DNA from: a virus
Length of the DNA stretch: 64,000 nt
IMG/VR virus record: IMGVR_UViG_3300022221_000006
Span: 1-64,000 of that record
Reading direction: 5' to 3' (one strand)
Part shown: positions 4,068 to 41,863 of the stretch, in pieces
Numbering within the stretch: the stretch's first letter is position 1
Layout: every line of letters begins with the position of its first letter
The notes under the pieces: generated by a model
What the model was told of the DNA's origin: nothing
Databases searched by the model: none
The model's input: the letters and a program-made list of their open reading frames with translations, nothing else
Program-made: the position numbers and the translations under genes

Positions 4068-4082
4068 CCCGTTAAATTAACC
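4068..4082 (+). promoter_or_regulatory. putative phage-RNAP late promoter (class L), upstream of terminase
   Basis: CCCGTTAAATTAACC, repeated at 20626 and 41843, immediately after a double terminator. Confidence 0.65.
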
Positions 4083-4412
4083 TAGAATAGGTTCCTTGAA
4101 GGGTATATATGGAACATTCCCGTGAGGGATCCTAGGGAGGGTCTTTAGGGATCCTCTTAGAGATACCTTTAGATACCCTTTTAATACTCCCCTATATTCT
4201 ATTATTATTAATAGATAACAACAGTGATAGATGATCCCCTAAAGGATAGTATAGGGGGATATTTTTCTCCTTCAAAGGGGAGGGCACAGGGGATAATTCA
4301 ACGGGGTCTTTTTATTCGGAGACTAACACGAACTCTAAGATTTCCAAGCGCGTCTGGGAGTCAACTTCAAACATTATCCCTCAAAATTCAATTTTAAAGG
4401 TATTTACAAGAT

Positions 4413-4871
4413 ATGAACAACGATGGCACAAATATACAGCCAAGAGACGGAGGAACATCCGCCGGTAAGAAGTTAATAGCAAACTCTCGTAGGTCTAGAG
4501 CCAGACTGGAAGAGCTTGACTTTGATCCTTTAGAAAAACAAGTAATGCTCTACAGGAGATTAGTCAAAGAAGACGAATGGTGGGAGAATCTCAAGGCAGG
4601 TACCTCTGTCGTAGATGTCGATGCAGATGGTAAGAAGAAAAAGACTCTGAGATACTCTGGGATAGCTCACGCTGCTATATTAGCACAGATGCAAAAGATA
4701 GGAAATGATCTCATGAGGTATGGCTACGGTCGTGTGCCTGAGAATGTAGGTTCAGGACTTGAAGCTCCACCTCCTCTGCAGATAGGTCTTACAGGAAGTA
4801 AGGCTCAAGGAGCTCTCCAGAGCATCGTTATCGATGTGTCCCCTAAGGTAATCAATGATGACGAAGACTAA
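4413..4871 (+). CDS. putative terminase small subunit
   Basis: size and position upstream of TerL; helical core (L..YGY) with a flexible tail. Confidence 0.55.
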   Translation: MNNDGTNIQPRDGGTSAGKKLIANSRRSRARLEELDFDPLEKQVMLYRRLVKEDEWWENLKAGTSVVDVDADGKKKKTLRYSGIAHAAILAQMQKIGNDLMRYGYGRVPENVGSGLEAPPPLQIGLTGSKAQGALQSIVIDVSPKVINDDED

Positions 4872-5034
4872 AGCTAAGGGTATCATGTATTGTCCTATCT
4901 GTGAATCAAACCTTGTGGCTACTAACTTTCAAGAAGTTGAAGAAGGTGAGCACGATGGCTATATCTATGTACATGATGCAAACACGGTTCACACTGATGA
5001 AGATTTAGAAGCACTTGAGAATGGTGTCCAGTGA
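4855..5034 (+). CDS. small putative metal-binding protein (59 aa, not in ORF track)
   Basis: MMTKTKAKGIMYCPICESNL...HDG..YVHD...H; stop overlaps the TerL start (GTGA). Confidence 0.55.
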   Translation: MMTKTKAKGIMYCPICESNLVATNFQEVEEGEHDGYIYVHDANTVHTDEDLEALENGVQ

Positions 5035-6380
5035 TTGAGCTACACCCAGGTCAATCGGATGTCTACTCAGACCTCTTTATTGAGAAATCAATAAGGAATG
5101 CTGTTGTATGTGCTTCCCGTGGATGGGGTAAATCATACTTCGCGACTGCAACTGCAACAACAGCTGCGTATGAACTCATGGCATTAGACCCATCTGTGCC
5201 GAATAAGAATGTTTATATCGTAGCTCCTACATATGACCAAGTAACTGATATCTACTATCCAATACTAGCCTACGATTTCGGTCTTGAGTCTATAGCAATA
5301 AGTAGCTCAAGAGACAGAGGTAAATTTATATTCGCAAATAACGTCGAATTGCGAATGATCTCGTTCGAAGCTATTGAGAGGCTACGCGGTAAAGGTTCTT
5401 ATTTTGTAGTTAATGACGAGATGTCCTCTTGGGCTAAAGGCATTGGGCCTAAAGAGGCTTGGGAATCAGTAATAGAGCCTTGTATTACAACTCGATGGAG
5501 TCCTAAGCGAGCAGCATTTTTCAATGCCCCTTCTTGTGGAAGATCTCTAACAATTTCTACACCAAAGGGATATAACTTCTTTCATGAGATATATCACTAT
5601 AATGAGAGCGATGATCTTTGGGGTTCCTACCATTTTGACTATAAATCATCTCCCTATCTGGATCCTGATGAAATTGAAAGGGTTAAGTCGACAATAGACC
5701 CTATTAAGTTTGCCCGAGAGTATAAGGCATCATTTGTCGATTCTGGAAATAGTGTCTTTTATTGTTTTGATAGAGATAGACATGTTTCAAAGGAGATTGT
5801 AGACTTCGTCCCAAAAGACTCTGATCTACCAGGTGAAGATGTGCATGTATGTATCGACTTTAACGTGGGGATAATGGCCTCAGGTATCTTTGCTGTAAGA
5901 GGTAAACAAGTCCAGTTTATAGACGAGATTCAGGGACAACCTGATACCGAATCTCTGGCAGTTACCCTGAAGAAGAGATATATAGACAAGGGACACAATG
6001 TCTATGCCTACCCTGACCCTACAGGCAATAGTAGAAAGACTTCAGCGGCTGTAGGACGTACTGACTTTACTATTCTCGCTAGCTACGGCATTAATATACG
6101 AGCTAGACAGAAGTCACCACCGATTATTGATAGTGTAGCAGCTGTAAACAAACAATTATTGACAGCCTCTGGACATGTCTCTATGTATGTACACCCTCGG
6201 TGTCAGAACATAATAAAGTCTCTAGAGCGTACTTCGTGGCTGGATAACAACCCCGATAGCGCATCTATAGATAAGAAAGAAGGTGTCGAGCATCATTCAG
6301 ACGGTATTCGATACGCTGTTGAATATCTCTTCCCTGTACGGAAGGGTGGAAAGACTGTTTCACGTGGATTCAATTTCTAA
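5031..6380 (+). CDS. terL: terminase large subunit
   Basis: Q motif, Walker A SRGWGKS, Walker B VVNDE, STPKG, RNase H-like nuclease (CIDFN, YPDP, H.SDGIRY). Confidence 0.95.
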   Translation: MIELHPGQSDVYSDLFIEKSIRNAVVCASRGWGKSYFATATATTAAYELMALDPSVPNKNVYIVAPTYDQVTDIYYPILAYDFGLESIAISSSRDRGKFIFANNVELRMISFEAIERLRGKGSYFVVNDEMSSWAKGIGPKEAWESVIEPCITTRWSPKRAAFFNAPSCGRSLTISTPKGYNFFHEIYHYNESDDLWGSYHFDYKSSPYLDPDEIERVKSTIDPIKFAREYKASFVDSGNSVFYCFDRDRHVSKEIVDFVPKDSDLPGEDVHVCIDFNVGIMASGIFAVRGKQVQFIDEIQGQPDTESLAVTLKKRYIDKGHNVYAYPDPTGNSRKTSAAVGRTDFTILASYGINIRARQKSPPIIDSVAAVNKQLLTASGHVSMYVHPRCQNIIKSLERTSWLDNNPDSASIDKKEGVEHHSDGIRYAVEYLFPVRKGGKTVSRGFNF

Positions 6381-6393
6381 TAGGATTAATAAA

Positions 6394-6618
6394 ATGACCG
6401 ACAATATAATACCTTTCAAAAAATTCGAAGGTGTAACTGCAAAAGAGGCTTTAGAAAGTTCTCTTAATACTGGCCTTGACGATGTTATCGTTCTGGGCTG
6501 GAAAGACGATATTCTATATTACGCTGCGTCGAAAATGAGTTCTGCTGATGCTAACTGGATGTTAGATAGTACAAAAGCAATGCTCCTCAACCGATGTAGC
6601 TTTCCAAGCGAGGACTAA
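6394..6618 (+). CDS. small hypothetical protein (74 aa)
   Basis: ATG at 6394 after AGGA; MTDNIIPF...VIVLGW. Confidence 0.6.
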   Translation: MTDNIIPFKKFEGVTAKEALESSLNTGLDDVIVLGWKDDILYYAASKMSSADANWMLDSTKAMLLNRCSFPSED

Positions 6619-6619
6619 A

Positions 6620-7210
6620 ATGGCACGTTCAAAAATAACGAATATATCGAATGACCTTACCAGTGATGGTGGCGGCGTTCTTATATCGCTTATCCAAGGG
6701 GAACAAGACGAGTTTCCCATCACACTTAACTTTGTGGATGTAGTATCTAACACGTATACTTTTGAAGCTGTCTTGATTGAAGGTGAGAATGATGGTTCAG
6801 GGCAGAGACCTGCAACAATACGAGCAACAAGCCCTAATAAAGCTGTCCTTACTGTGCGTGTACCCTTAGATAAGGGCGTCTGGAGTGCTGCTGTGACATA
6901 TCTCTTCAATGATTACGTAGAGTTCGGTGGCAGCATCTATATAGCCTCAGGGGCTCCTTCTATCAGTATTGATCCTGTAGCTGACCCTGACAATTGGACG
7001 CCTCATGTGGAGAACCGAGTGTTTATTCAATTCGGTAGTGCTCTCTCAGTAACACCTGCGTATGCAGTACAACCTGCTGTAGGTCTGCCTGTCTATGGTT
7101 TCCTTGAAATGCGTGTCACAGAACCTAACATAGGAGCTTACACTCGCACATGGAAGCCTCTGAGAGGTCTTGTAGAGTTTCTATTTAGTCCGACTGCGCA
7201 GGTGCCATAA
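6620..7210 (+). CDS. putative virion structural protein
   Basis: beta-rich; W...Y...DYVEF.G..Y.A carbohydrate-binding-like segment; upstream of tail fibre. Confidence 0.55.
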   Translation: MARSKITNISNDLTSDGGGVLISLIQGEQDEFPITLNFVDVVSNTYTFEAVLIEGENDGSGQRPATIRATSPNKAVLTVRVPLDKGVWSAAVTYLFNDYVEFGGSIYIASGAPSISIDPVADPDNWTPHVENRVFIQFGSALSVTPAYAVQPAVGLPVYGFLEMRVTEPNIGAYTRTWKPLRGLVEFLFSPTAQVP

Positions 7211-7212
7211 TT

Positions 7213-7749
7213 ATGACGGTTGTTCTGAAGATATCTCAAAGTGATATCGCTACATCTGTTGAGAAACAAGAATTGTCAGCAGGTTACACAGAACAAGCTG
7301 TCACAGTTGAGGCCCTAGGGAAAGACCTATCGGGAGTAGAGGAGAGATTCTCTCCCGATATAGCCATTGAGAAGGTCGAGAGAAAGAATGTAGATACGCC
7401 TTTGCAAGTCTCTCCTGCTCTAGAAGGTAGTAATATTCCTCAAGAGATGACAGCAGATGTAGCTACAAAGGAATCTGTTCAGACGATCCCAAAAGGGAAG
7501 CCTGTTATGGTTATCAGCACACCAACACGCGACAATACATTTGTCGAAAAAAGCCTTGCTGAAATAAGCCTCGATAAATCTATTATTTACGAGCACAATT
7601 TAGATCTTCCTGTTGCAGGAGAAATCACTGCTAACAGTGAGACAACAGATGTTATTATAAATGGTTCTGGTATCAGAAAACAAGGGAAGTATGATTCATA
7701 CGCAGTACAGGGATATGTGAAAGACGAATACTGGAGAATTAATAGATGA
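7213..7749 (+). CDS. hypothetical protein (late module)
   Basis: 178-aa ORF translationally coupled to the tail fibre gene. Confidence 0.6.
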   Translation: MTVVLKISQSDIATSVEKQELSAGYTEQAVTVEALGKDLSGVEERFSPDIAIEKVERKNVDTPLQVSPALEGSNIPQEMTADVATKESVQTIPKGKPVMVISTPTRDNTFVEKSLAEISLDKSIIYEHNLDLPVAGEITANSETTDVIINGSGIRKQGKYDSYAVQGYVKDEYWRINR

Positions 7750-10700
7750 CCGATATCCTTACAAGAGCAGCCAAAGGTGACCTCTTAGAGCATTTTGAAA
7801 TTGATGCTAATTTCACTAATCTGAATAACGACAAAATAGAGACTTCTCTGCTAGGTCTCACTGAAGGTAAGATCCCTCTACTAGGCCCAGGAGGGCTCTT
7901 TCCAGAGTCTGTGTTTTCATCAGTAGGAGGTTTATTCACTGAAGACGCAAGTAACAATATAGTTGGTGGCACAGGTTCTGGTGCATCACTAACTACCGGT
8001 ACTTACAATTTCTTCGCCGGAAGTAATGCGGGAAATCTGTTACAGAGTGGCAGAGATAATATAGCTATAGGATATAGGTCTCTATCAGTCAACCTTGTTA
8101 ATAATAACAATGTAGCCATCGGAAGTGCTGCTTTACGATTTGCTACTGGTGCAGCATTAACCGCTCTAGGCCCTTATGCAGGTAATAAAATATCTTCTGG
8201 TAGCAACAGTATTGCTATTGGTTGGGCTGCTCTAGGACAAATAGATGCAACTTCAGCTTCTATAACAGGGTCAGGAAATGTAGGTATGGGCTTATACGCT
8301 GTCGGTGGATTATCCACAAACCCTACAACTCTACACACTAATTTAGGTGTGGGAAATTATGCGTTATCCGATCTACAAACAGGGGGATTTAACACGGGAT
8401 TAGGCACCCAAACCCTAGAAACTATTACAACTGGTCTTGGAAACACAGCTATAGGGGATAGAGCCGGTAGGAACTTAACTAGTTCAAGTTCTTATAATGT
8501 AATGATAGGGTTTCGAGCCGGGCCAGGTACCGGTGCTAATGTACATAATAAATTATATATTCATAACAATGTGTCAAGCACGCCTCTGATTTACGGTGAT
8601 TTTGCAATTTCAAAGATCACAATCAATGGGGATTTTGATGTTACTGGTGCATTTACCTCTTTAGGTATAGATGATAATGCAACAGGAGAACGGTTGCAGA
8701 TAGCTGATACCTTGTCTAGTTTTGGCGCTTCAGGTGTTTTCTACGGACTAATACATCCAGCGAATGATCAGGGCATTACTATAGCAGGAGGTAATGCACC
8801 CGCGAAAGGAGGTAACATAGAGCTAGGAGGTGGTACTCATGTTTCTATTGCAGGGGATATCCGTATTCGCTCAGGCGCTAATTCTGTCTTCACTTGGGAC
8901 GAATCTTTAGGCTCTCTCACACTTTCTACAGGGGCAGGAGTTAAAACTACAGCTCTTACTATCAACGCTTCTCAGCGTGCTACATTTAGTGGTGATGTGA
9001 GGTTATCAGGTGATACTCCGACCTTGTCTATAAATGACGTGGTATCGGTATCTGATACCGCGATGCAAACATACATCTCACTACAACGGGCTGGGGCAGA
9101 GAAAGGATGGTTAGGCTTTGGTTCTGGAGCTAACACACACCTAAGCATTGTTAATAATCTTGGCGAGATAAGGTTATCTTCTAATGGAGTTACTGCACTA
9201 ACCTTAGATGCTTCTCAGGATGCTACTTTCGCAGGAGCTGTAACTGTACAAGGAGTTTTCACTTCTCTGGGCATAGATGACAATGCCTCTAGCGAGCGTC
9301 TTCAAATAGCTGATGGGGATATAGTTCTCGGAGGTTGGCATGATGCAAACTATACAGTAAAAAGAGGAATAGATAATAGAATTTTAATTTTTGAGGGAGG
9401 CGTTACGTCTGCAGGTAGTGCAAGGTTACTACTATATGGTGCGACAGAAACAACTGGTGCTGGTGATTTTGCTTTAAAGTCAGGCTTTAATACTGTCTGC
9501 TTATGGGATGAGTCAGCAGGAGCACTAACTCTGAGTACGGGAGCAGGAGCTAAAACTGCTGCGCTTACCCTAGACGCATCACAAAATGCTACATTTGCAG
9601 GTACTGTTGACGGCCGCGACGTAGCAGCAGACGGTGCGGTATTAGACTCTTTAGTGGTGACATCTGCACCAAATATTCCTGCTCGCAATGCTGTACTAAA
9701 TAAAGAACCTGTCAGTCAAGGTGAGTCTACCCGTACTGGTATGAGTTCTACAATCTATACAGGTACTTCTAGTGCTAATCCGGTAGCCTCTGGTATTGAT
9801 ATGGCTACTGGTGAATTCGGAGGACTAGTCTGGATAAAGAGTAGAAATACCGTAAGTAATCATGCTCTATTTGATACAGTTAGAGGAACTACCCTTGAAC
9901 TTAAAAGTAACAGTAGTGGAGTAGAAGTTATTAATTCAGATGCTCTAACTGCTTTCACCTCTACAGGATTTAGTCTAGGAGCTGATGCTAATGTAAACTC
10001 TATCGGTAATACCTATATAGCATGGTCATGGCAGACTAATAAGAAAATAACTGGTGTTACTAATAGAAATAAATCTTATACTTGCCACTATAATCCTGAC
10101 ATGGGGTTTTCAATTGTCAGTTATGTGGGTGATGGTGTTGCTGGTCATGAGATACCACATCATCTAGGTGTATCTCCTGAACTATCAATCTTCAAAAATA
10201 TAACAAGTTCGAATAACTGGATTTTGCAGGGGAAAGATATCGGGAATTCTGAAAGCGGGGACTATATTCTTTTAAACGCTACTAATACTCTCACGAACAC
10301 TACATCGGTCAAGTCTATTTTTACGGAAGAAACCGTGAGTCTTGGAATAGCGAGCTATAATACTTCGGGTGTAAGTAATATTGCTTACCATTTCTCTTCA
10401 GTAGAGGGTGTTTCTAAAGTTGGTAAGTATATTGGTACAGGCGCTATTGGCAATTACGTGGAATGTGGTTTTACACCAGCATTTGTGATGATTAAAAATA
10501 TAACAACTGCTGAAGATTGGCAAGTGTTAGATGTCATACGTGGAGGTGGAAACTTATTACAAGCCAATACTACTTCAGCGGAACAATCTGTTGTGCTACT
10601 AACTATTAATGCTCAAGGTTTTATTCTACTTGGTAGTGGAGGGACTAATAAACTCAATGATGAATATATATTTTTAGCCTTCTCCTTAGCCACTTCAGAT

Positions 10701-12370: not shown

Positions 12371-12379
12371 GAAAATAAA

Positions 12380-12998: not shown

Positions 12999-13006
12999 GA
13001 GAACCT

Positions 13007-13384: not shown

Positions 13385-13397
13385 GCAGGACGGCGAT

Positions 13398-13826: not shown

Positions 13827-13830
13827 AAAG

Positions 13831-14398: not shown

Positions 14399-16009
14399 AT
14401 GACTGTAGCAAACGCCGCTGATGTCACCAGAACAGTAGCAGATCCTAACGCTGAATACCTATCAATGCGTGATATATGGGATCGAAACAGGGCTGTATGC
14501 GGCGGCGAGCGCTACGTAAAGGCCTTAGATCAACGCTTAAGTCCTAGCATGCAAAACATGCTTATTCCTTTTTCCCCATCTATGACGCAGCCTCAATATG
14601 ACTTCTATCGTTTAGAGGCTGAGTTACCTGGGATTGTGTCTCAATTTTCAAAGATGTTGGTAGGAGGTCTTCTGCGCAAGACCCCTGTACTAACTCTACC
14701 TGACGACATGCCTGAAGGTGTCCGTGAGGAGGCTCACGACTGGATCATGAATAGCTTCACCCAGGACAATTCATCAATCACATCCTTTCTAGACACCGCC
14801 TTGTGGGAAGAGATTCAAACAGGACGTGCCTGGGTATATGTAGATTATCCTTTTGTTGAAGATGCAGATTCACTTACAAATGCAGACTTCAGAGAACTTG
14901 CTCCATTTCCTATCCTATGGAAGCCTGAAGAGATTGTGAACTGGAAACTTGGAAAGGATGAGAAAGGAAATGCAGTCCTAAAACAGATCATTGTACGGAC
15001 ACTAGTCGAACAGTATGGTGATACTGAAGACACTGAATTTCATCCTACATTTAAAGATACAGTTTATGTTCATGAACTCGACAGCGTCGGATATTATCAG
15101 ATTCGCGTATTCGAAAGAGCTGATGATGTACAAGACGCACCGGTCGTTAATGGAAATCCCTACAAGAAACAATCCGATAGTAAGGTGGCTTTTCCTCTTG
15201 TAGACACGATCACTGGGATCAAAGCAAATGGCGAACGTTTGACACGAATCCCTGCATGGCCTCTTAATGGTAGCATGAAGATTACTGATCCAATCATTTC
15301 CGCTATCGTAGACAAAGAAATCAGTCTATATAATAAAATCAGTCGCCGTAATCACTTACTATATGGTGCTGCTACATACACTCCTGTGATATTCTCCGAC
15401 ATGGGTGAAAAAGAGTTCGACGAAATTGTAGCGAGTGGACTGGGAAGTTGGCTGCGGTTACCTATGGAGGCTAAAGTAGAGGTTCTAAAGACTCCTACAG
15501 ATGCTCTGAAAGATATGGAGAAAGCGATTGCAAGTGCTATTGAAGAGATGGCACGCTTAGGGATTCGTATGTTAAGTCCTGAGACTGCTCAATCAGGGAT
15601 TGCTCTTGAGATTCGGAATGCTGCCCAGACTGCTCAGCTAGGCTCCTTAAATAACAAGGTGTCTGCGATCATGTCTAAGATTATTGCTTTTATGCTGAAT
15701 TGGCGGTATGATTTAGAATTGACAGATTCTGATGTTGAATTTGACCTTTCATCTGACTTTAATCCCATCCCACTAGGTGCTGACTGGATTAGACTAGCAA
15801 CAGAATGGTATGAGAACGGTCTACTTCCACGTAGCGTTTGGCTTCAGATTCTGAAACAGAATGACATTGTCTCTCCTGACTATGATGATGAAGACGGTCA
15901 GACAGAGATTATTGAAGACGACCTGATACAAGGTCAGGCGAAGGCCGAAAATGAAGATATCCAAGATCAACTTGACAAAGAACTGGAAGATGAAGATTTA
16001 GATGCCTAA
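14399..16009 (+). CDS. portal protein (DUF4055-like)
   Basis: 536 aa; GRAWVYVDYP, PEEIVNW, acidic C-terminus; position before MuF/scaffold/capsid. Confidence 0.85.
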   Translation: MTVANAADVTRTVADPNAEYLSMRDIWDRNRAVCGGERYVKALDQRLSPSMQNMLIPFSPSMTQPQYDFYRLEAELPGIVSQFSKMLVGGLLRKTPVLTLPDDMPEGVREEAHDWIMNSFTQDNSSITSFLDTALWEEIQTGRAWVYVDYPFVEDADSLTNADFRELAPFPILWKPEEIVNWKLGKDEKGNAVLKQIIVRTLVEQYGDTEDTEFHPTFKDTVYVHELDSVGYYQIRVFERADDVQDAPVVNGNPYKKQSDSKVAFPLVDTITGIKANGERLTRIPAWPLNGSMKITDPIISAIVDKEISLYNKISRRNHLLYGAATYTPVIFSDMGEKEFDEIVASGLGSWLRLPMEAKVEVLKTPTDALKDMEKAIASAIEEMARLGIRMLSPETAQSGIALEIRNAAQTAQLGSLNNKVSAIMSKIIAFMLNWRYDLELTDSDVEFDLSSDFNPIPLGADWIRLATEWYENGLLPRSVWLQILKQNDIVSPDYDDEDGQTEIIEDDLIQGQAKAENEDIQDQLDKELEDEDLDA

Positions 16010-19000
16010 TGTAAATACAGCGATCTATGATGGTAAAGTAGATCGCGCTGCTATGCTACGCCTGTACGAACAGAATACCCATGGAAAGATAGAAGCTGTC
16101 TTTGATGGTCATGTAGTTCGTCTAGATAAGCTAGTGAAGAAGTCTAAAATTAATTCAAAGACTTTCAAAGACTTTCAAAAGAATCTTGATATCGAATTGA
16201 AGAAGACCTACAAGGAAGCCTTTAGTGTTTCTAAAAGGTCACTGCTTGACATGGCAGCAGATCAAATGTCGTTTACATACCAGAATTTAGATGCTGCATT
16301 AAGTAAGGTGTGGCGCACAAAGAGACCCCAAAGACGTATCTCTGAAGATATTGTCTTAAAACAACCACTCTACGAGAATAGAACTCTTGAGATGGGTTGG
16401 AAAGGGGTCTCTAAAAACGAACGAAAAAGACTTGCGCAAGTGATTCGTAAAGGTATTGCAGACGGTGATACCGAAGAGATCATCGCCAGGAATATCAGAA
16501 GAGGCAATGTTCATAAAATAACCCGTAATCAATCGCGATCGTTAGTGACCACTGCAATGACGAGTGTTAATGCTCAGGTCGATCATAGTGTCTATGTCGA
16601 GAATGAAAAAGCACTTCAGGGTTGGCAGTATGTAGCTGTTCTTGACTCAAGTACTACACAGATATGTGCCTCCCGTGATGGTAAGATATATGGCGTCGAT
16701 GACACAGCGTACCTCCCTCCTGCTCATTGGCAGTGTCGTTCGACAATAATCCCTGTGGTTAAGAAGTGGGAAGATCTTGCAAGTCTAGAGAGCGTTGCTC
16801 AGCTGCGTAGAAGAAATATGGCAAAACTAAGCCCTGCTCAGATAGCTAGATACGATGGCCAGACGCCTCTGAAAGAAACATATAATGCCTGGCTCCTGAG
16901 ACAGCCTTCAAAGATCCAATATACGCATCTAGGTGATTGGCAGAAAGTAGACCTTTTTAACAAAGGGAAGATACATCTTTCTAAATTTACTTCTCCGGAC
17001 GGTAAAACATTAGGGATTCGTCAATTGCGTCGGATGACAGATTCTGAGTATGCACCTCCAACAGGTTCTCAACGTTTTGCATTAGCAAAGGAAAAACTAG
17101 ATGCGATGAATCTTGGTGCTATCTCTCCTGATGATTTTATAAACGACCGTAAGATGACAAACACCCTAAAGAATTTCTACATTCTTCAATCAAAAGAATT
17201 GGACGGTACTTTATCACTTACTAACTATAGAGGAAATCTCATAGGAACAAAGAGAGCACAGAAACGAAGAGTGCTTACAAGACCTCCCAGAGAAGAACAG
17301 GTGATTTTCAATCCGGTCACAGGTCGTTATGAAGATTCAAGAATGTTTCAGCCAACACCTTCTGTTCTCGTGAACAATATGAGGCTTGTGAATGAGAGTA
17401 GTATTCTTAAGGTCGCAGATAAAGAATACATCGATCGTTTTATTGGAAGTCTCTCTGAGTATATGAGTGTAAATGAAAGAGCTGTCGTGGCTGATAATCT
17501 GAGAATTCTCTTCACAAGATATCGAAAGAACCCCGAGAATTGGGTTAACTTTAAAGCCATTTCACAAGCACAGATTAAGTTTGACGTAATGAATGTCTCT
17601 GACACAATCGAGACACAGCTCAGAAGCGATGCGAATCTACTGAAGAAGCTTAAGCAGGATAATTACATTGACCCTGTCCTAGGTCCTGTTACCTTTGAAG
17701 ATCTTGACAAACACTTCATAAGTAATATATTAGAACGTAATAAATGGGAAGATCGTATTGCTCCTAAAATCTCAGAGGAACTCCGTGACGTTTTCGATCA
17801 CAACATACCATTTAAAATACGAAGACGTTTGAGTGATTCAAATTTACAGCAGTTCTATCTAAAATTTGCACATAGACTTTCTCTGGCAGACAGTCCTGAT
17901 GTAGACCAGCTAGCGGCTGCTTTAGGTCGTGATCTGTACAATCTTGCGAACTATAATGGCAATCGTCGACAATGGTATGACCTAGGTAAGAAACTTTTAG
18001 AGTCGAATAATAAATTCTTCGAACTAGAAACCTTTGGAGTTCAGAAAAGACGTATGAAAAGTAGAATGAGTGGTCAGCTATTTGGACCTTATTACGACAC
18101 GTTCTCTTACAACATTCGCATCACAGACCCTCGTATCCAGAGGTATTCTCAGCTAAATAGAAAGATTGAGGTAGGTCTCAGGATCGGTGTCACAGATGTC
18201 GGTAATCGACTGGTCTTTCGAGAAGGTTATAAAACGTACTTCATCAAAAACCGTCTTGGCCTCTACACAGACACTCGGATACCAATTACGTCAACAAGCA
18301 GTTTTATGGACTTTCCAGAAGGTCTTATAGACAAAGAAATGGCCGCATCTTTGAACTGGGCAGCTAAGACTGAGTATCGAATCGATGAGGACTTCTACGA
18401 CTCGATCATGCATATAATGAACTTCACAGACGATAAAGGTAAGGCAAAATACTTCGATGATATAAACGAGTACCGTAAATATATAGCAGCTAGAGGTGAT
18501 GCGTATGAAAGATTTAAAGCGATGGAGTGGTTTCGTAAGAGAGGAGTTGCTTTTAGTAATCATCCTTTTGTTGACCACCGTGTGCGTATCTATGACCGTG
18601 GCTTTATCGGTCCTCAGTCTGGTGAAACTTTTAGACCTTTCCTGAATACTGCCAAGGAGAAAGTCTTAGGCATCGATAACTTTAGAAATCTGCAAGATCA
18701 AATTGGAGCTTTCTTAGGAGGTCTCGATGACTATTTTGAAGGTCGTTATAACTCTCTAAGTGTGACAGGGCGACAGAAGATTGCAATAAAATGGCGTAAA
18801 GAGCTGGTTACTATTGGAAATCATATGATACGAAATAAGCCAAATGATGTCCGTAAGATTCTTCAGTCAGACATGGTGGCTAGAATCGAAGGTGAAGAAT
18901 TAGGTAAGTTTCTCAGATTCGCAATTGAAGTTGCTAAGATAGATAATTATCTAGACGGTGTCTATAACAAAACCTCTCTTCAAAAGCTTTCTAAATACAA

Positions 19001-20621
19001 GACAGCTCTCGCTCTTGAACAAGACGCATCGTCTTCAGGTGCCCAGATCATTGCGCTAACCACACGAAATAAGCAATTAGCAGAGCTTAGTAATGTTGTC
19101 CCTACAAACCAGAAACGACGACTCTACGACGAAATAGCAGCTGCCACGTTCAACGATCCAGCGTTTAGAAAACTAAATGAGAAGTTTGGACTTACTGAGA
19201 AAGATTTACGCAAGGCTGCGAAGGCTCAGAACATGGTAACCTTTTATGGAGCAGGAGAGAAGACAGGGATTCTGAACGTTGAAGGTAAATTGGCAAAAGT
19301 TCTTGAGAGACAACCTGGTACTCTCGTTGTGAAGGCCTCTGATCGCGACGTTGTCCTCAGTGAGATATCAGCACGCATTGCTCGTTATGAACGCTTTGAT
19401 CCTGCTATTGCTGAAGAATTGAAAGTCCTTAGAAGCAATGTACGTGACATATTCAACAAAGGTCTTCATGTAGGGGATGACATCATGGAAGACTTATATT
19501 TCTTGGACCCCGCGACCAAAGATCTGGTGTTACAAATGACGCAAAACTACACAAAGGTCGTAACCCCTGATGATTTTCGGCAGATTGCTAAGATTATGAG
19601 TATGCATCTTGGCGAACAGGTTCCTATCTTGAAAGACTTTACAAAATATTTAGGGCGACTGGGTGAAGACTTTCTCATCAACGCTAAACCTTCTAAGAGT
19701 AGTTTTTCCTGGAAAGGTATTTTAAAGGAGCGGTTATTTGGTTCATCCCGTGATGGTTATAAGCTGTCGAAAGAAACCAGTAAGCTTCTGGGACTCCCTG
19801 CAAACACAGCTATCTCAAAGCAGATTCTGAGTAAGTTTGGCTTCTGGCGTCCTAATGGAACTCTCAGCCAGCTACTCTATGGAGTAAAGGATCCAGGAGA
19901 TCGCAGAATAGGAGCTAAGTATTTCAAGATTCAAATAACAAAATTTAAGAAAATCTTTTCAATCGAAGTTTTCAAAGCCAACAGATTGCCTAAAAGGTGG
20001 ACAAACATCCCCTGGAAGAACTTCGATGGGAAGACAATTGAGCAGAACTTTACGCAGACCTTCGAAGAGCGTCTGTTGTATAGAGATAAGGACGGTAACT
20101 GGGTTACGAATATTCTTCAAGTACCTCAAAAGACGCAGGCGACTTGGTGGGAACAAATTCTCAATGATGCAGGAAATATTGACGATATTGCTGATGCTAC
20201 AAAGGCTAGAACTGCCTATGCTGTAAATGGGAATCACTCCAATGATGCTGTGATTGTCAAGCGATTCCATTTGTGGGGTAAGTCTGAAGATGTTCCTACT
20301 TCTACAATTCATGACGCTTTCTTTACTAATATCGCGGATATGTTAAAAGCACGGTCGGCTCTGCGTAAAATATATGCTGATGCTATGAAAACAAATGTTA
20401 TAAAAGCAACTCTAGATGAGATGTTAGCGAGAGGTCTCCCTCGTGCACTTTATGACAAGTATTTGAATGAAGCCATTGAAATAGGCCTTATCCCTGTACC
20501 AGGAAGGTCTCGAGTAGGCGGCAAGCTACTAAAAGATACCGACATATTAAACTCTGAAGACATCTTAAAGAAGGTTAATGAAGTCTTTCAGGAAGATGCT
20601 TATTGGTACGGCGTGGGGTAA
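16002..20621 (+). CDS. MuF (SPP1 gp7-like) minor head protein fused to a T7/N4-superfamily single-subunit RNA polymerase
   Basis: N-terminal GWQYVAVLDSSTTQICASRDG...PPAHWQCRS (MuF); C-terminal DHRVRIY, motif A EQDASSSGAQ, motif B RKAAKAQNMVTFYG, NGNHSNDA, motif C TIHDAF. Confidence 0.9.
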   Translation: MPNVNTAIYDGKVDRAAMLRLYEQNTHGKIEAVFDGHVVRLDKLVKKSKINSKTFKDFQKNLDIELKKTYKEAFSVSKRSLLDMAADQMSFTYQNLDAALSKVWRTKRPQRRISEDIVLKQPLYENRTLEMGWKGVSKNERKRLAQVIRKGIADGDTEEIIARNIRRGNVHKITRNQSRSLVTTAMTSVNAQVDHSVYVENEKALQGWQYVAVLDSSTTQICASRDGKIYGVDDTAYLPPAHWQCRSTIIPVVKKWEDLASLESVAQLRRRNMAKLSPAQIARYDGQTPLKETYNAWLLRQPSKIQYTHLGDWQKVDLFNKGKIHLSKFTSPDGKTLGIRQLRRMTDSEYAPPTGSQRFALAKEKLDAMNLGAISPDDFINDRKMTNTLKNFYILQSKELDGTLSLTNYRGNLIGTKRAQKRRVLTRPPREEQVIFNPVTGRYEDSRMFQPTPSVLVNNMRLVNESSILKVADKEYIDRFIGSLSEYMSVNERAVVADNLRILFTRYRKNPENWVNFKAISQAQIKFDVMNVSDTIETQLRSDANLLKKLKQDNYIDPVLGPVTFEDLDKHFISNILERNKWEDRIAPKISEELRDVFDHNIPFKIRRRLSDSNLQQFYLKFAHRLSLADSPDVDQLAAALGRDLYNLANYNGNRRQWYDLGKKLLESNNKFFELETFGVQKRRMKSRMSGQLFGPYYDTFSYNIRITDPRIQRYSQLNRKIEVGLRIGVTDVGNRLVFREGYKTYFIKNRLGLYTDTRIPITSTSSFMDFPEGLIDKEMAASLNWAAKTEYRIDEDFYDSIMHIMNFTDDKGKAKYFDDINEYRKYIAARGDAYERFKAMEWFRKRGVAFSNHPFVDHRVRIYDRGFIGPQSGETFRPFLNTAKEKVLGIDNFRNLQDQIGAFLGGLDDYFEGRYNSLSVTGRQKIAIKWRKELVTIGNHMIRNKPNDVRKILQSDMVARIEGEELGKFLRFAIEVAKIDNYLDGVYNKTSLQKLSKYKTALALEQDASSSGAQIIALTTRNKQLAELSNVVPTNQKRRLYDEIAAATFNDPAFRKLNEKFGLTEKDLRKAAKAQNMVTFYGAGEKTGILNVEGKLAKVLERQPGTLVVKASDRDVVLSEISARIARYERFDPAIAEELKVLRSNVRDIFNKGLHVGDDIMEDLYFLDPATKDLVLQMTQNYTKVVTPDDFRQIAKIMSMHLGEQVPILKDFTKYLGRLGEDFLINAKPSKSSFSWKGILKERLFGSSRDGYKLSKETSKLLGLPANTAISKQILSKFGFWRPNGTLSQLLYGVKDPGDRRIGAKYFKIQITKFKKIFSIEVFKANRLPKRWTNIPWKNFDGKTIEQNFTQTFEERLLYRDKDGNWVTNILQVPQKTQATWWEQILNDAGNIDDIADATKARTAYAVNGNHSNDAVIVKRFHLWGKSEDVPTSTIHDAFFTNIADMLKARSALRKIYADAMKTNVIKATLDEMLARGLPRALYDKYLNEAIEIGLIPVPGRSRVGGKLLKDTDILNSEDILKKVNEVFQEDAYWYGVG

Positions 20622-20625
20622 TAGA

Positions 20626-20646
20626 ACCCCGTTAAATTAACCCTGT
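20626..20646 (+). promoter_or_regulatory. putative late promoter (class L), upstream of scaffold/capsid
   Basis: ACCCCGTTAAATTAACCCTGT. Confidence 0.7.
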
Positions 20647-20725
20647 TATTTAGTGTAACAAGAGTCTTAACAATTAAACGTGTTGCTGTGCGACACATAA
20701 ATGAGCTGTGCTCAGGAAAAGAAAG

Positions 20726-24488: not shown

Positions 24489-24519
24489 AGGGGATATCTT
24501 CGGGTATCCCCTTTTATTA
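24489..24519 (+). terminator. rho-independent terminator
   Basis: AGGGGATATC-TTCG-GGTATCCCCT-TTTATT. Confidence 0.8.
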
Positions 24520-24533
24520 ACCATACCAGAGCC

Positions 24534-33579: not shown

Positions 33580-33591
33580 TAGAGGATTATT

Positions 33592-34308: not shown

Positions 34309-35153
34309 AAACTATATCAGATGCAATGCGTGATCTCTTACAACGAGAAGCTACTGAGTCATTTCTTCTTGTTGAGATTGGTCCAAATCTAGCCTCTCAG
34401 TATTTCAGGTACGTAACACTTCCCTACGACTTTACTCATGAAACTAATGTATATTCAGCAAACCATAATATTGTTTCAATGGATGCACCTCGGCTTTCTA
34501 ACTCTGTCGATAAATCTACCTTCAAAATAACGCTAAGCGACTCCAACTTTGCAATGCGTCCTTATTTTGACGCCGGTGCTCAGGGTCAACTTTCTGGAAT
34601 CCCTATCACAGTAAAGGGAGGTTTTGTCAATAATACAGGTCAAATCGAGTATGGAACACCTCCAGGCTTTCCCTATGATGAGTTTTTCATAATATATAGC
34701 GGTGATCTTAATGGTGCGAACTACGCAATTACTCTTGAAGAAGAAGTTATGCTTGTCATTGAAGGTGCATCTCCGATGGCTGCTCTCGATATGTCACGCT
34801 CAATGATGATCTCGAAAAGCTATATGTCAAAGAAATTCAACGGTGACACCTCTTATGATGAGATATATGAAGGTTCTGACTCTATTAGTCTTGCTTGGGG
34901 GATGACTCCAAACAATTCTGTAAAGAAGGCAAGACAAGCATCCATGAACGGTGGCACTCTTAAGAAGCTTGTCAAGGTACGTGATGGCCGTGATGGCCGT
35001 GGAGATGGTCGTAGTAGTTATTATAGTCCTAACACAGGTGGCCATAGTAGTGGTAGTCCAGGCCACGGAAGTGGAGGAGGCGGCAGCGACCGAGGCGGTT
35101 CCACTGCAGGTGGTGGTGGTGGTGAAACAGGTGATATGGGGAGTTCTTTCTAA
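34305..35153 (+). CDS. minor tail protein with Gly/Ser-rich C-terminal tail
   Basis: synteny; D.S...I....LAWG end motif followed by a low-complexity extension. Confidence 0.6.
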   Translation: MKTISDAMRDLLQREATESFLLVEIGPNLASQYFRYVTLPYDFTHETNVYSANHNIVSMDAPRLSNSVDKSTFKITLSDSNFAMRPYFDAGAQGQLSGIPITVKGGFVNNTGQIEYGTPPGFPYDEFFIIYSGDLNGANYAITLEEEVMLVIEGASPMAALDMSRSMMISKSYMSKKFNGDTSYDEIYEGSDSISLAWGMTPNNSVKKARQASMNGGTLKKLVKVRDGRDGRGDGRSSYYSPNTGGHSSGSPGHGSGGGGSDRGGSTAGGGGGETGDMGSSF

Positions 35154-38100: not shown

Positions 38101-40816
38101 TGGATTACACATGTATGTGTCAAATAATGATGGTAGCATTTTTGAGTATGATCTGTCGGAACCTTTTGATGTTTCGTCTGCAACTTATACATCGAGAACT
38201 ATTAGATTCGCAACGACACTAGGAACGTCTCAATACACATCATTAGCCTTATCTCCTGATGGTAGTAAAATATTTGGAAACAATGCCAGTACTAAGAAAA
38301 TACACTCCTTTAGTTTTGGTACTAACTTTGATATCTCAACTCTTACAGAAGATGCAGGCTCTCTTAGTGTGCTTACCCAATTCGGAGCGAATGGCTTTAT
38401 TAACTATGTAATAAATAGTACAGGAACACGTGTATTTGCCCTCCATACATTGTCACCTTTCCGAATACATCAATACAATCTGAGTACTCCTTGGGATCTT
38501 TCAACAGGCGTTTACGCAGCTACTTATATAAGTGCTGTTACAAATACTACACAAGGTCTTGCGATTTCTAGTGACGACACTAAGTTATATGTCGGTGACA
38601 ATACGACCAAGACTATTTTAGAGCTTTCAATATCAGCTTCGGGAGATGTCACTACATGTTCTCTCACAGGTGCCGCTACTGATTTCTCGGATACAAATGT
38701 ATATGTTGTTGATTTTACATTTGCAAATGAAACACTGATTGTATGTGGTGCTGCTATCCCCTATTTTATATATCAGTATGCAAGTAGCATTGAGTGGGCG
38801 ACAGAAGACCCTGGTACTGAAGGTTCTTCGTGGATCACTGAAGCATCTTTCTCAAGGATGGGTAGCTATGGAATAAATACTAATACGCCTGCTTATTTAG
38901 CGCCTGTCTTAGCGCATAGTCCTGGTACGCAGGTAACGAAGCAGAGAGTCTATCAGTGGTCAACAGTAGCGCCTACTTTCCTTCCAAATGCCCAGACTAC
39001 TTATAACTGGCTGAATGGTACACAGGGAAATGCGACGAACATGGGCTCATGGACGTTGGGTGTCACAGCCAGTCCAGGAGGCGTCGGTATTAGATTATGG
39101 GTTGCTGAGATTTCTACATCAGCCCCGAATGGCACAGTCTCTACCACTCTCGCGTGGGATACAGGAAATCCAAATATATACGCAGGTGACATTACAAACT
39201 TACCCGATGGTAAGACACAGGTAGTATCTATTTACCGATGGGATACAGCTATTCCTACTATTGTAGGTTCCAGTACCTATACCTGGGAAACGGATATCCT
39301 TTCTGTAATTCCAACAGGCTGGTCAGATACGATACCTGCCACTGTTTCAGGCTATACACTATATGAAGCTCGTATTACACTTGTTGACATAAAAGAGGCT
39401 GTCACAACGTCTGTTGATTGGTCTGCTGCTAAACGTCTTGCAATCAACTATGCTGGTGGTGAAGGTATTAATGCTCGCCGCGCCTACGTGTCCACCGTTC
39501 AAATAAATTCAGATGAGTCATTAGTTCTGAGTTCCGGTACAGGCTCCCTACCAGATTCTGAGGCCTGGGATTTCACCGGTGTTACTTGGAGCGATACGTT
39601 ACCTACAGCAGGCGCTGGTGAAGTTGTTTACCAATCCGATGGAATGTACGATGAGAATACCACTAATGTGACATGGTCTCCCCCTTATGTTGCTGCTTTT
39701 AAAGTAGGTGATCTTAGTGCAATATCTGCTTCGATGGGTACCCTGAATGTAACTTCATCACTCACGATGCAAAATTCGGGTGTCATTAAGTCGGAAGATG
39801 CTACTTCTCTAGTTGCAGGCGCAGGTCTTTGGATGAGCGGTGGAACAAGTGCACAGTCTGAGTTTAGAGTAGGGGACCCAGCTGCTAGCAACTACTTAGC
39901 TTGGTCTCCTGCTCTAGGTGTGCAGGCAAGAGGTGCTGGACTCTCCATAAATGGAGCAGCCGGAGCGATATCTCTCAATGATGAAACCTTTGGAAATAAG
40001 GGGGTACAGCTTGAGTATAATGTAGGATCTCCTCGGATATATATCGGAAATGGCGAGGGTAGTTCTATCAGTTATGAAAATAATGCATTGACACTCGGCG
40101 CTGGCGTGCATATAGATGGCGCAGATTCCATATCAGCTGTTTCCAACTTCTATCGCTCACACGATTGCACTGACACTGTTGGTTGGGGTACTTTCTTAGG
40201 TGGACCGACTCTGACCCAGTTTGACTATGGTTGGAGAGTCACTATACCAAATACTGACACCGCAGAGTTCTGGGTCTACAACACGAGGCTTTTTCTAAAT
40301 AATACTGCACAATGGGGTAGTGACAGAAAAGTCTACTTTGATATAAGCCTCGCGCCTACTCCTACAGAACCTAATCTTCGAATGGAGATTGGCATGGGAT
40401 ATATGCGGACGAATGTCGTATATAGAAACGGAGTGTGGTTTTCCATAATCTATGATGATACCTCACCGATAGCGGTGCGAGGTGTGTGCTATAGATGGGG
40501 TGTTCCTACTTACACAGCAGCTATGCCTTTTGATATCATGGATCCATCGCGCAGTGATCGCATTCAATTTTTCATAGACTACAAGCCCTCGATCAACGTC
40601 TGCGACTTCTACATAAATGGTATCTATCAAGATTCTCTCCCAATGGGTAGCGGAGATAGACCTACTACTGAAAATAGCAGCGAGACATACATGGCCGGTC
40701 TTCGGACTTACAATGCAGGAACACTTACAGGACTTCTGAATCGAAATTTCTTCATTACCCAAATTAAATGGTGGGTTGCACTTACTGGAGGAGCTTTTGC
40801 TGGGTACCCTCGTTAA
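35153..40816 (+). CDS. tail tip / central fibre (gpJ-like host specificity protein)
   Basis: VYGR.K.GG, SNNPV..LLDYL...YG, LEPGDVI, FnIII-like and beta-propeller-like repeats, LSAISA.MG. Confidence 0.85.
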   Translation: MSVIAAVVGLSAYIGGATILTAVMLGASIKYQQYKQQKALDAMEAAADEAKGFEVVTEGEIDSVKLVYGRAKIGGTRVLHRLKSNYVYAAPALGGEVFVTEGDTRLASSVDSVPVLGTIKVISNTTSFNGAVDGTWDSDNETITQLTVSSEISRSSPTGPFTVTTEVGKAAIFGSAYVAVKIGHTPFDTYGDWSVEEGNAEEPIATVFNYRVDSYNNTTGLLTLKFHSATNPEYLSGTRTASLSANKNGSKNEFLFINQVICHKGISAVHSIDIDGRDFRHPDFGASGRIHVYRDGGIGDPMLNANITGQAASLFPETAYASMVFKLNRDEPQYRGIPEVVFYVDGFELSRIDESLGVYTKSSTKYSSNNPVYVLLDYLTAEYGRNLDISKIDLASFHAAAQLCEKQVDAGSLEDIDINGALWNEKVKTTGTRNIKLYECNLVLDTADDFRSNVNKILGSIPEAHFMWSDGTYKISLKYPEVWSAGTWPAGSIVQYETGGVIDLYRSTVSTIEVPGAGVEWETGPDPQLVSAYLTDDDIILENEITMSWPDLSSRLNYCTITFVNESKDFEKDTVSWPNRYGPGLTTVYDTYLAEDNGIELETSKSPHGITTEYHATAYAEMIVRKSRHAHVLGMTVTNEFMYLEPGDVIHLNSTELKVPSEIYLIDSLKVSAQGNIDIQLTKFDARILAWNAKDMEVVSKRSIYSGDLPQVTGLAYTPPAPGKATLTGGNLTWDPSTYKTALKYNAYIAGGPADIQDFNTVWEFLGSSTSNSLTMPPFTPGRYTLTVVAEALSGKVPPVYNLTTGSRWPLLTVDIADSLLGGNQFALTLYKYSTTDLTGTSVEGGSFDFTNHVTTPPVGYYVSEGVARENATDPLQPGDLYVSTAVASVNHPATIDISLAWTALELFDPKTTQKTIKFYARVPAAEPNPSAPSGGSYLFPEGPVTPPSSALASGSYTGKSFSVATQINGSPTDLASAIISVDGLHMYVSNNDGSIFEYDLSEPFDVSSATYTSRTIRFATTLGTSQYTSLALSPDGSKIFGNNASTKKIHSFSFGTNFDISTLTEDAGSLSVLTQFGANGFINYVINSTGTRVFALHTLSPFRIHQYNLSTPWDLSTGVYAATYISAVTNTTQGLAISSDDTKLYVGDNTTKTILELSISASGDVTTCSLTGAATDFSDTNVYVVDFTFANETLIVCGAAIPYFIYQYASSIEWATEDPGTEGSSWITEASFSRMGSYGINTNTPAYLAPVLAHSPGTQVTKQRVYQWSTVAPTFLPNAQTTYNWLNGTQGNATNMGSWTLGVTASPGGVGIRLWVAEISTSAPNGTVSTTLAWDTGNPNIYAGDITNLPDGKTQVVSIYRWDTAIPTIVGSSTYTWETDILSVIPTGWSDTIPATVSGYTLYEARITLVDIKEAVTTSVDWSAAKRLAINYAGGEGINARRAYVSTVQINSDESLVLSSGTGSLPDSEAWDFTGVTWSDTLPTAGAGEVVYQSDGMYDENTTNVTWSPPYVAAFKVGDLSAISASMGTLNVTSSLTMQNSGVIKSEDATSLVAGAGLWMSGGTSAQSEFRVGDPAASNYLAWSPALGVQARGAGLSINGAAGAISLNDETFGNKGVQLEYNVGSPRIYIGNGEGSSISYENNALTLGAGVHIDGADSISAVSNFYRSHDCTDTVGWGTFLGGPTLTQFDYGWRVTIPNTDTAEFWVYNTRLFLNNTAQWGSDRKVYFDISLAPTPTEPNLRMEIGMGYMRTNVVYRNGVWFSIIYDDTSPIAVRGVCYRWGVPTYTAAMPFDIMDPSRSDRIQFFIDYKPSINVCDFYINGIYQDSLPMGSGDRPTTENSSETYMAGLRTYNAGTLTGLLNRNFFITQIKWWVALTGGAFAGYPR

Positions 40817-40820
40817 CAAT

Positions 40821-40862
40821 TGCGCCATATGTGGTATCTTATATGAATAGGAATAATCCTAT
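40821..40862 (+). promoter_or_regulatory. putative phage-RNAP early promoter (class E), copy 1
   Basis: TGCGC-N7-GGTATCTTATATGAATAGGAATAATCCTAT; the 30-mer is identical at 42949 and 43365. Confidence 0.75.
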
Positions 40863-40884
40863 TATAATAATCAGGAGATACTCG

Positions 40885-41169
40885 ATGAAATATTTAATTA
40901 TAATAATAGCTCTACTAACAACCCCCGCGTTTGCCTGTAATTCTCATGATACTAATGGGTATATATGGATTGGGGCTGGACTTCATGACAGTCCACACGA
41001 TGTAGCATTTGGAAAAGAGATAGCAGAGTGGGGTGTGAGCTTCAATTTACACCAGATCAGTCCTATCAACAGCCTCCGTTTCATCCTTAAGCACGATTCA
41101 GGGATATGGACGAGGGAGAGAGACTATGGCTACAACACTGCAACCTTCAGGCTACAAGCTAACTTCTAA
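40885..41169 (+). CDS. small secreted beta-strand protein, putative outer-membrane protein
   Basis: GGAG RBS, signal peptide MKYLIIIIALLTTPAFA, H-x-S...G-x-N segment, C-terminal Phe. Confidence 0.65.
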   Translation: MKYLIIIIALLTTPAFACNSHDTNGYIWIGAGLHDSPHDVAFGKEIAEWGVSFNLHQISPINSLRFILKHDSGIWTRERDYGYNTATFRLQANF

Positions 41170-41717
41170 TGAAACTTTCAGAAATATCACGTAAAAAGTC
41201 ACTGGCACGGATCGTCAGTGGCTTCATGAACATGGATGTTCCCGTAAAGGAGCGTATAGAGTCTCTTGAGAGATACCTATGCACTCTCCCTCAACAAGAA
41301 GCACCAGTTGAAGAACTCTGGGGCAAAGATGTATATGTTCGGGAACTTATAATCCCTGCAGGTTCTTTTGTAATAGGGCGTATTCACAAATATGATCATG
41401 TAAGTATTATGATCGAAGGCGAACTTTTAATGTGGACAGAATTCGACGAGACAATACACTTAAGTGGCTACAATAAAGTCATTGCAAAAGCAGGTATTAA
41501 ACGAGTCGGTTATGTTCTACAAGAAACGAAATGGATTACCGCTCACGGTGTCACCGAGACAGACAACTTTAAAAACCCCGTCGAGGCTTTAACCGTTGCA
41601 ACATATGGAGAGTATAGCACATTCAAGGATGCTGAGATGGTATGCATCGAGGGCAACTCCATAGAACAAAACCTGAGTCTGCCGGTGTCAAAATCGGTCT
41701 CCAGAACGCCAGACTAG
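41169..41717 (+). CDS. cupin-fold protein
   Basis: YVREL.IPAG...GRIHKYDH.....G; AG.KR.GY....W.T.H. Confidence 0.7.
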   Translation: MKLSEISRKKSLARIVSGFMNMDVPVKERIESLERYLCTLPQQEAPVEELWGKDVYVRELIIPAGSFVIGRIHKYDHVSIMIEGELLMWTEFDETIHLSGYNKVIAKAGIKRVGYVLQETKWITAHGVTETDNFKNPVEALTVATYGEYSTFKDAEMVCIEGNSIEQNLSLPVSKSVSRTPD

Positions 41718-41842
41718 CACCACGATCTCAGGGTCACCCTTATGGGAGTGTGCCTGAAAAAACGACAGCAGAGACGGCCAGTCTGGAAGCCGTCCTCAAA
41801 AAATCCTTTAGAATCAAGGGGTTAGGGCGGTCGTCACCTCAG

Positions 41843-41863
41843 ACCCCGTTAAATTATCCCTGT
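41843..41863 (+). promoter_or_regulatory. putative late promoter (class L), upstream of lysis genes
   Basis: ACCCCGTTAAATTATCCCTGT, 20/21 identical to the 20626 copy. Confidence 0.7.

Follow-up and report, generated by a model that had tools for sequence, protein, structure and literature searches.

What is the short sequence that recurs ahead of the packaging, capsid and lysis genes of an uncultured phage, and which RNA polymerase (RNAP), if any, reads it? The question is raised by IMG/VR record IMGVR_UViG_3300022221_000006, whose positions 1 to 64,000 (the window, on which this analysis is based) carry several copies of a motif, here termed L, that an earlier note had read as late promoters for a stand-alone phage RNAP. 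Our comparison of this genome with its relatives indicates that L is probably the promoter of the free (non-virion) T7-like RNAP encoded at 44564-46837. This assignment draws on four lines of evidence: the co-orientation of the copies, their syntenic intergenic slots, the sharp boundaries of a 20-nt element and covariation of the motif with the specificity loop of the enzyme.

The window covers the initial 64 kb of a 74,179-bp contig whose ends overlap by 133 bp (position 1 versus 74046-74179), and the contig is therefore a complete circular phage genome of 74,046 bp, with all genes on one strand. This phage had been assigned to a bacterial genome bin, the remainder of which has a G+C content of 48.9% as against 42.4% in the phage. 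A pattern scan of the window found CCCGTTAAATTAWCC exactly on the plus strand at 4068-4082, 20628-20642 and 41845-41859, with 20 of 21 positions identical between 20626-20646 and 41843-41863. When up to two mismatches were allowed there were five matches, compared to 0.13 expected from shuffles, none of which reached five; the three near-identical copies and the match within the DNA polymerase gene described in the earlier note are all present. Two copies had been overlooked, namely a minus-strand copy, CCCGTTGAATTATCC, at 4291-4305 with consensus flanks (gAC...C) and a sixth copy at 68036-68050 of the contig, past the end of the window. The 14-mer of the motif occurs six times on the phage contig and not once in the remaining 2.96 Mb of the assembly. 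L is the most repeated 12-mer of the phage genome, followed by a 30-nt element, class E, found at 40833, 42949 and 43365.

The full L element spans about 20 nt and reads R-A-[C/A]-CCCGTT-NNN-TTAACCC-[T/A] (spelled with its flanks, R-A-[C/A]-CCCGTTAAATTAACC-C-[T/A]), that is, two fixed blocks separated by a free central triplet. Information content, calculated from 87 non-redundant copies among the listed matches of a database scan, is high from -3 to +17 and close to zero outside; no position past +17 was conserved in these copies and hence no second, host-type element at a fixed distance. Both blocks are perfect in 64 of 77 non-redundant sites from loci anchored on the polymerase gene, the central triplet being AAA in 39, AGA in nine, AAC in seven, GAA in six and other sequences in the rest. 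Such an asymmetric duplex element with sharp boundaries is of the promoter type (approximately 17-23 bp). Two other ways of reading it were rejected: the central triplet as determinant of specificity, since it varies within single genomes, and transcription in the antisense direction, whose sequence (the reverse complement, ...TTTAAC then GGG) is more T7-like, since this would leave no sense promoters and have all copies firing into the upstream gene.

An exact-motif scan of IMG/VR returned at least 118 loci, of which 97 encode homologues of the proteins of this phage at 40-70% identity. As the set was selected by the motif itself, we also examined motif-independent sets anchored on the capsid (44 loci) or on the free polymerase (80 loci, 1.27 Mb). 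Among the matches listed, all 131 exact copies in the 97 related loci lie on the gene strand, none of the 131 is intragenic, and the motif is conserved letter for letter in more than 100 related uncultured phages. The polymerase-anchored loci contain 105 gene-strand sites but no site in the opposite orientation, spread over 68 of the 80 loci, where fewer than one per strand was expected. The conservation in related phages that the earlier note had proposed as a check is borne out. The listed copies occupy a limited set of slots: the gap between the gene for a fusion of MuF with an RNAP (MuF-RNAP) and the scaffold gene (64 copies), upstream of the genes for a Gp2.5-like single-stranded-DNA-binding protein (SSB; 22), of terS (15), of a homologue of the gene at 68123 (11) and of a holin-like gene (four). 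In these relatives, copies after the MuF-RNAP gene often begin 9-13 nt past its stop codon. Complete relatives have four to five copies each in the same slots (four to six per complete genome overall), and EBPR siphovirus 1 (GenBank JF412302) has three. The carriers form a large clade of 60-80-kb long-tailed phages, and a literature search found no description of the motif string or of promoters for this phage group. That the copies are chance matches or functionless relics of a mobile repeat has virtually no probability: the copy inside coding sequence at 50565 is all that speaks for it, and we regard this reading as already refuted by the comparative data, in which copies do not differ by a letter between genomes with only 40-70% protein identity, the flanks not being conserved.

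The same data bear on whether L might be an operator for a dimeric phage DNA-binding regulator rather than a promoter. The core, GTTAA-N-TTAAC, is a perfect palindrome whose commonest variation is at or beside its centre, and some sites are followed, 24-27 nt further on, by a degenerate second copy. Nevertheless, we consider an operator very unlikely, because the flanks are conserved yet asymmetric (RAM-CCC on the left, CC-C-W on the right) and because 236 sites lie on the gene strand (the 131 listed and the 105) as opposed to none on the other, which a symmetric operator would not need. In addition, a conserved host-type promoter element is lacking at every fixed distance, the natural variants TTATCCC, TTAGCCC and TTTACCC break the palindrome on one side without compensation, and the left block switches with the loop of a polymerase, as follows.

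The 757-aa enzyme is a T7-type polymerase (Pfam RNA_pol, E 1.5e-67; T7 RNAP, E 4e-46), in which a specificity-loop segment aligns with T7 residues 739-770. This segment, VQYGPPxGxRxSTGY(Y/F)xNTLQL, is much more conserved than the polymerase as a whole. Between T7 and T3, promoter and loop change together (T7 N748). Twelve of the 80 polymerase-anchored loci are without a canonical site, and in three of these the left block of the syntenic sites reads GCTGTT or GCTGGT. All four copies are altered in the complete 81.5-kb genome G005, to which one of these three loci belongs (three GCTGTT and one CCTGTT). Three of its copies are in slots seen elsewhere (past the MuF-RNAP stop codon, ahead of SSB and ahead of the 68123 homologue), and the other, which is followed by the C-rich box described below, has no identified neighbour. 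Another genome, G002, has AAC/GAC in all five copies, and the two genomes together show concerted change of the motif across a genome. G640 and Y641, two residues at the loop tip, do not vary in any of the 48 polymerases whose loci have the canonical motif, while one or both are replaced in all three polymerases from the GCTG(T/G)T loci (G, N and N at 640; H, Y and H at 641). A scan of a 209-column polymerase fragment detected five columns with a rare residue in at least two of the three variants relative to the 48 canonical sequences; two of these are G640 and Y641, which are adjacent, otherwise invariant and at the loop tip. A maximum-likelihood tree of the polymerase with the loop masked requires at least two origins of the variant. 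It is this covariation of left block and specificity loop that ties L to the free enzyme. Several intergenic, co-oriented copies, a cognate polymerase encoded in the same genome and a joint change of promoter and loop, to which locus L264 is a partial exception, are the features of a phage promoter.

The alternative reader is the 1539-aa virion MuF-RNAP fusion (16002-20621), with class E then belonging to the free polymerase. The conserved part of class E is TGCG(G/C)-N7-GGTATCTTATATGA, followed in most cases by a hairpin that varies in sequence; each genome has three copies, which lie ahead of the free polymerase gene in four of four genomes checked. Both enzymes belong to the T7 superfamily, copy 2 of L adjoins the MuF-RNAP gene, and L and class E are conserved in the same genomes, so that co-occurrence alone cannot assign readers. 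We nevertheless judge this exchange of readers to be very unlikely, because L covaries with the loop of the free polymerase, because class E lies ahead of the free polymerase gene, where a class that is read earlier would be expected, and because the packaging, head, tail and lysis genes would otherwise be the first to be expressed. Precedent is also contrary, as the virion polymerases of N4 and phiKZ read a few early promoters. The same is reported for the virion polymerase of P23-45 (PMC10770324). In line with the free enzyme as reader, the more distant relatives that have a short loop (G004 and DSS3_VP1) lack L. A de novo motif search in G004 found only a tandem A/T repeat and intron-like repeats, and since G004 is without both L and class E, no double dissociation of the two classes was obtained.

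Several observations weigh against L being the promoter of the free enzyme. The covariation amounts to three loci and at least two events, locus L264 combines a changed loop tip with a canonical left block, and the covariation covers the free polymerase alone, as two of the three variant contigs do not include MuF-RNAP. The present genome has one copy that is directed against the genes (4291-4305), an inversion seen in no relative examined, and is without a canonical copy in its 25-kb replication block. The 11-bp palindromic core is what would be expected for a dimeric DNA-binding protein. Finally, there is no G-rich start like those of T7, T3, SP6, Syn5 and the DSS3_VP1 motif, the right block terminating in CCC.

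If L is the promoter of the free polymerase, the enzyme would bind the double-stranded element, its specificity loop reaching into the major groove at the left block; the A/T-rich middle would be melted and RNA begun within or just after the right block. The T7 specificity loop reads positions -7 to -11, and placing the left block there puts +1 near positions 10-13 of the 15-mer, while alignment of L to the DSS3_VP1 motif and the Syn5 promoter puts it at about position 10. Our best guess is a start at positions 10-13, around the AA of TTAACCC, in which case this block may be the initially transcribed sequence; a start after CCC is the alternative, and either choice is unproven. Class E, being upstream of the free polymerase gene, would be read before that enzyme exists and L after. 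In the proposed cascade the injected MuF-RNAP fusion would read the three class E elements, and the free enzyme, once made, would read L and transcribe everything else: a nucleotide-metabolism unit (from 68036 round to 3965-4059), a packaging, portal and MuF-RNAP unit (from 4068), head and tail genes (from 20628) and the lysis cassette (from 41845). In relatives, L would also head the replication block. The elements of this scheme that lie in the window are collected in Table 1.

Table 1. L copies, associated elements and the proposed reader in the window
Feature	Position	Strand	Remarks
Two tandem 46-nt terminator-like repeats	3965..4059	+	each a hairpin then a T run; close the unit upstream of copy 1
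L copy 1	4065..4084	+	plain type; T at -1 and +16
C-rich box CCCTCCCC	4277..4284	-	6-13 nt after the 15-mer of the inverted copy
Inverted L copy	4289..4308	-	C-box type; directed away from terS, towards copy 1
L copy 2	20625..20644	+	perfect consensus
Weak intergenic L-like site CCCCTTTTATTAACCA	24508..24523	+	2 block mismatches; 1.7 such sites expected
Class E copies	40821-40865, 42937-42981, 43353-43397		upstream of the free polymerase gene
L copy 3	41842..41861	+	C-box type; T at position 13
Untranslated leader after copy 3	41860..42028	+	about 100 nt homologous to 4083-4290, minus strand
C-rich box CCCCC	41869..41873	+	10 nt after the 15-mer of copy 3
Stand-alone T7-like RNAP, 757 aa	44564..46837	+	proposed reader
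Specificity-loop segment, residues 627-648	46442..46507	+	G640, Y641 = 46481-46486
L-like copy in DNA polymerase gene	50562..50581	+	G at position 1, G at position 16

The genes that follow each copy show how far the timing proposed in the earlier note can be kept. Copy 1 lies 9 nt past the double terminator-like repeat, which is as the earlier note had described it, and 345 nt ahead of terS (4413), with terL beyond. Copy 3 precedes by 184 nt a holin-like gene (42029-42565; the product has two C-terminal membrane segments), after which comes an M15-peptidase-like gene (42562-42891). The sixth copy, at 68036, heads a conserved gene without known function (68123) and then MazG-like, peptide deformylase and PurA/PurZ-like genes. 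This last unit, together with the 22 listed loci that have a copy directly before SSB, a gene of the replication block, contradicts a purely late class, such that the promoter and its reader as originally proposed are supported whereas an exclusively late role is not. Within the sixth-copy unit (contig C53, 69218-74064; L202:5218-10064) there are a MazG-like pyrophosphohydrolase, a peptide deformylase and an adenylosuccinate-synthetase homologue, the last of which matches a PurZ-type PHROG (phrog_1211, E 3e-51) and has cellular PurA as its best solved relatives. The cultured relative DSS3_VP1 has dU in place of dT.

Copy 2 begins 7 nt past the stop codon of the MuF-RNAP gene (open reading frame, ORF, end 20621) and about 100 nt before the scaffold gene, with the capsid gene downstream. 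The earlier suggestion that a copy in this position raises capsid expression is plausible, given its place 9-13 nt past the stop codon in many relatives, but does not apply generally. Among the capsid-anchored loci the exact motif lies about 800 nt upstream of the capsid gene in 14 of 44 and variants do so in 8 of 44; the other 22 of 44, mostly with a short MuF-RNAP-scaffold spacer, have no copy at that slot, which is therefore optional and not fixed. In the scaffold leader (20680-20714), the ribosome-binding site is closely preceded by two hairpins that have a YGT triloop, GTGTTGC-TGT-GCGACAC and GAGC-TGT-GCTC. Stems in relatives have another sequence with the pairing kept (GAGT-TGT-ACTC, GGGC-TGT-GCCC and AGAT-TGT-ATCT), and the element occurs even where the L copy is absent; a genome-wide search found such hairpins in the scaffold leader alone. 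They may be a translational operator or a stability element. Among relatives (EBPR siphovirus 1, L205, 3983-4663; G004, polymerase gene; L143; L157), interruptions occur in the MuF-RNAP or the free polymerase gene, one of the inserts being an HNH endonuclease gene and another about 250 nt long, and intron-like inserts of 600-1300 nt are present in some MuF-RNAP-scaffold spacers.

Two L-like sites fall outside these units. The plus-strand copy at 50565-50579, within the ORF of a family-A DNA polymerase (49080-51137), is the only such site in the replication block of this genome and has one mismatch (GCCG...). By our own estimate about 0.006 matches of 14 in 15 would be expected by chance, and a GCCGTT left block is found at intergenic sites of two relatives. 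The G at position 16 is atypical, with C there in 85 of the 87 listed copies from relatives and G in none. This copy is possibly a weak internal promoter. The intergenic site at 24508..24523 is within chance expectation. Class E copies two and three are each immediately preceded by a G+C-rich hairpin (42900-42930 and 43327-43346), and these hairpins could terminate a lysis-cassette transcript begun at 41845. The window has no Rfam match and no tRNA.

A subset of copies is followed by a C-rich box. Of 92 non-redundant copies, 24 have a run of four to seven C residues starting 9-13 nt past the 15-mer (one more has it at +23), as against one of the 92 upstream flanks. This box often resembles a degenerate L copy and is confined to the terS, scaffold and lysis slots, being absent from all 17 copies at the SSB slot. 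In relatives, a copy with the box comes first in tandem pairs that are spaced by 80-160 nt around an A/T-rich imperfect palindrome. The two such copies of the window, at 41845 (+) and 4305 (-), are followed by homologous sequences of about 100 nt (local score 34, compared to 16.9 +/- 2.2 for shuffles), which implies that a module near terS has been inverted in this genome and now faces copy 1. From these slots we infer that the C-box copies form a late subclass serving packaging, head and lysis genes, and candidate roles for the box are in timing or, by comparison with the T7 primary origin, in an origin primed by the polymerase.

An additional or different function of these copies and their A/T-rich leaders, as a replication origin or packaging site or as a late timing element, is unlikely though not negligible in probability. 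The restriction of the box to three slots and its rarity in upstream flanks argue for it, as do the palindromes enclosed by the tandem pairs and the inversion at terS, which a pure gene promoter should not tolerate. Against it, the leaders 41860-42028 and 4083-4290 (-) fold no better than shuffles (z -0.4 and -0.7), nothing in Rfam matches, and C5-TATA as an independent motif is not enriched elsewhere in the genomes. The fold of the leader 4083-4412 (+) is marginal (z -2.05), and no credible small ORFs were found downstream of the inverted copy or copy 3. We put forward only tentatively a wider scheme in which this clade would have a two-grade promoter code, with plain L for middle genes (nucleotide metabolism and replication) and L plus a C-box at constant spacing, in many cases accompanied by an A/T-rich palindrome and another L copy, for packaging, head and lysis genes, together with natural orthogonal pairs (G640/Y641 with CCCGTT versus N or H there with GCTGTT). 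If this doubtful scheme were true, the C-box would be a promoter-proximal timing element, a polymerase-primed origin or a packaging signal, and the inverted module next to terS would be explained.

With L as the probable promoter of the free enzyme, the motif would be the missing cis element of a self-contained transcription scheme based on two phage polymerases. The long-tailed phages with this scheme are a large group, sampled worldwide and hardly cultured, with 211 polymerase relatives in IMG/VR; EBPR siphovirus 1 (in GenBank) and, more distantly, roseophage DSS3_VP1 also belong here. To examine the scheme, a single purified 757-aa protein and a 20-bp template would be enough. A natural switch of promoter specificity that maps to two loop residues would bear on how single-subunit polymerases read DNA, and the variants might yield new orthogonal pairs of polymerase and promoter, of use in synthetic circuits and for transcription in vitro. 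Knowledge of the element would also enable annotation of transcription units in these phage genomes.

The cultured phage DSS3_VP1 (Naomviridae) shares the genome layout, including both polymerases, and has its own 20-nt motif, ATAGGKTRCGTTAAAGRGGG (also cited in the form ATAGGKTRCGTTAAAG). This motif occurs in 12 copies on the plus strand, mostly intergenic (L203/L204; 2340, 6587, 7415, 19209, 19244, 19333, 29403, 45933, 46400, 46558, 55105 and 59203), including three in tandem before the portal gene. It is unannotated in the record, and the 2021 DSS3_VP1 paper has no promoter description and no discussion of the polymerases. The motif has CGTTAAA in common with L, resembles the whole Syn5 promoter and has a G after it; in contrast to L, its flanking blocks differ, the start is G-rich, the specificity loop is short and the gap from MuF-RNAP to scaffold has no copy. 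The promoter of cyanophage Syn5, which is biochemically defined, is ATTGGGCACCCGTAA, with +1 directly after it, and the Syn5 polymerase accepts A or C at +1 (PMC3950665). The left block of L with its flank (A-C-CCCGT-T-AA) nearly equals the 3' half of that promoter (CACCCGTAA), but L has a conserved TTAACCC block where Syn5 has +1, and the Syn5 specificity loop is nine residues shorter. The resemblance between L and the Syn5 promoter may be convergent.

Two phage polymerases acting in sequence are reminiscent of N4, in which an injected virion RNAP serves early genes and the T7-like RNAP II serves middle genes. N4 RNAP II is a two-subunit enzyme that depends on a cofactor and on single-stranded DNA, and the late genes of N4 use the host polymerase. 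The systems share an injected enzyme with few, hairpin-bearing early sites and a free T7-like enzyme next, but in the present phage the middle and late genes seem to share one free enzyme and a promoter of duplex type, and the virion enzyme is part of a fusion with MuF. L itself does not have the form of an N4-type hairpin promoter (5-7 bp stem, 3-nt loop), as GTT/AAC is all that can pair when the triplet varies, and variants at positions 11-13 are uncompensated. Nor does it have that of a T4 MotA-box-type activator site for host RNAP, there being no conserved positions past +17.

Finally, L shares with the T7, T3 and SP6 promoters a single asymmetric duplex element of about 20 bp in several copies, co-oriented with gene blocks, a specificity-loop polymerase as the probable reader, a joint change of promoter and loop, and a layout with terminators and a stronger unit for head genes. 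It differs in having no similarity to the T7 consensus and in its two blocks split by a free triplet, and it cannot be placed in the T7-group consensus family (TATA at -4 to -1, G-rich at +1 to +3), as it has no G run and a TTAACCC right block. The phage is also different, a 74-kb long-tailed virus and not a podovirus of the Autographiviridae, and its polymerase is 126 aa shorter than T7 RNAP at the N-terminal end. The T7 primary replication origin consists of the tandem promoters phi1.1A/B and an A/T-rich region; by analogy, tandem L copies in relatives enclose an A/T-rich stretch, as does a pair of L copies next to terS in the window.

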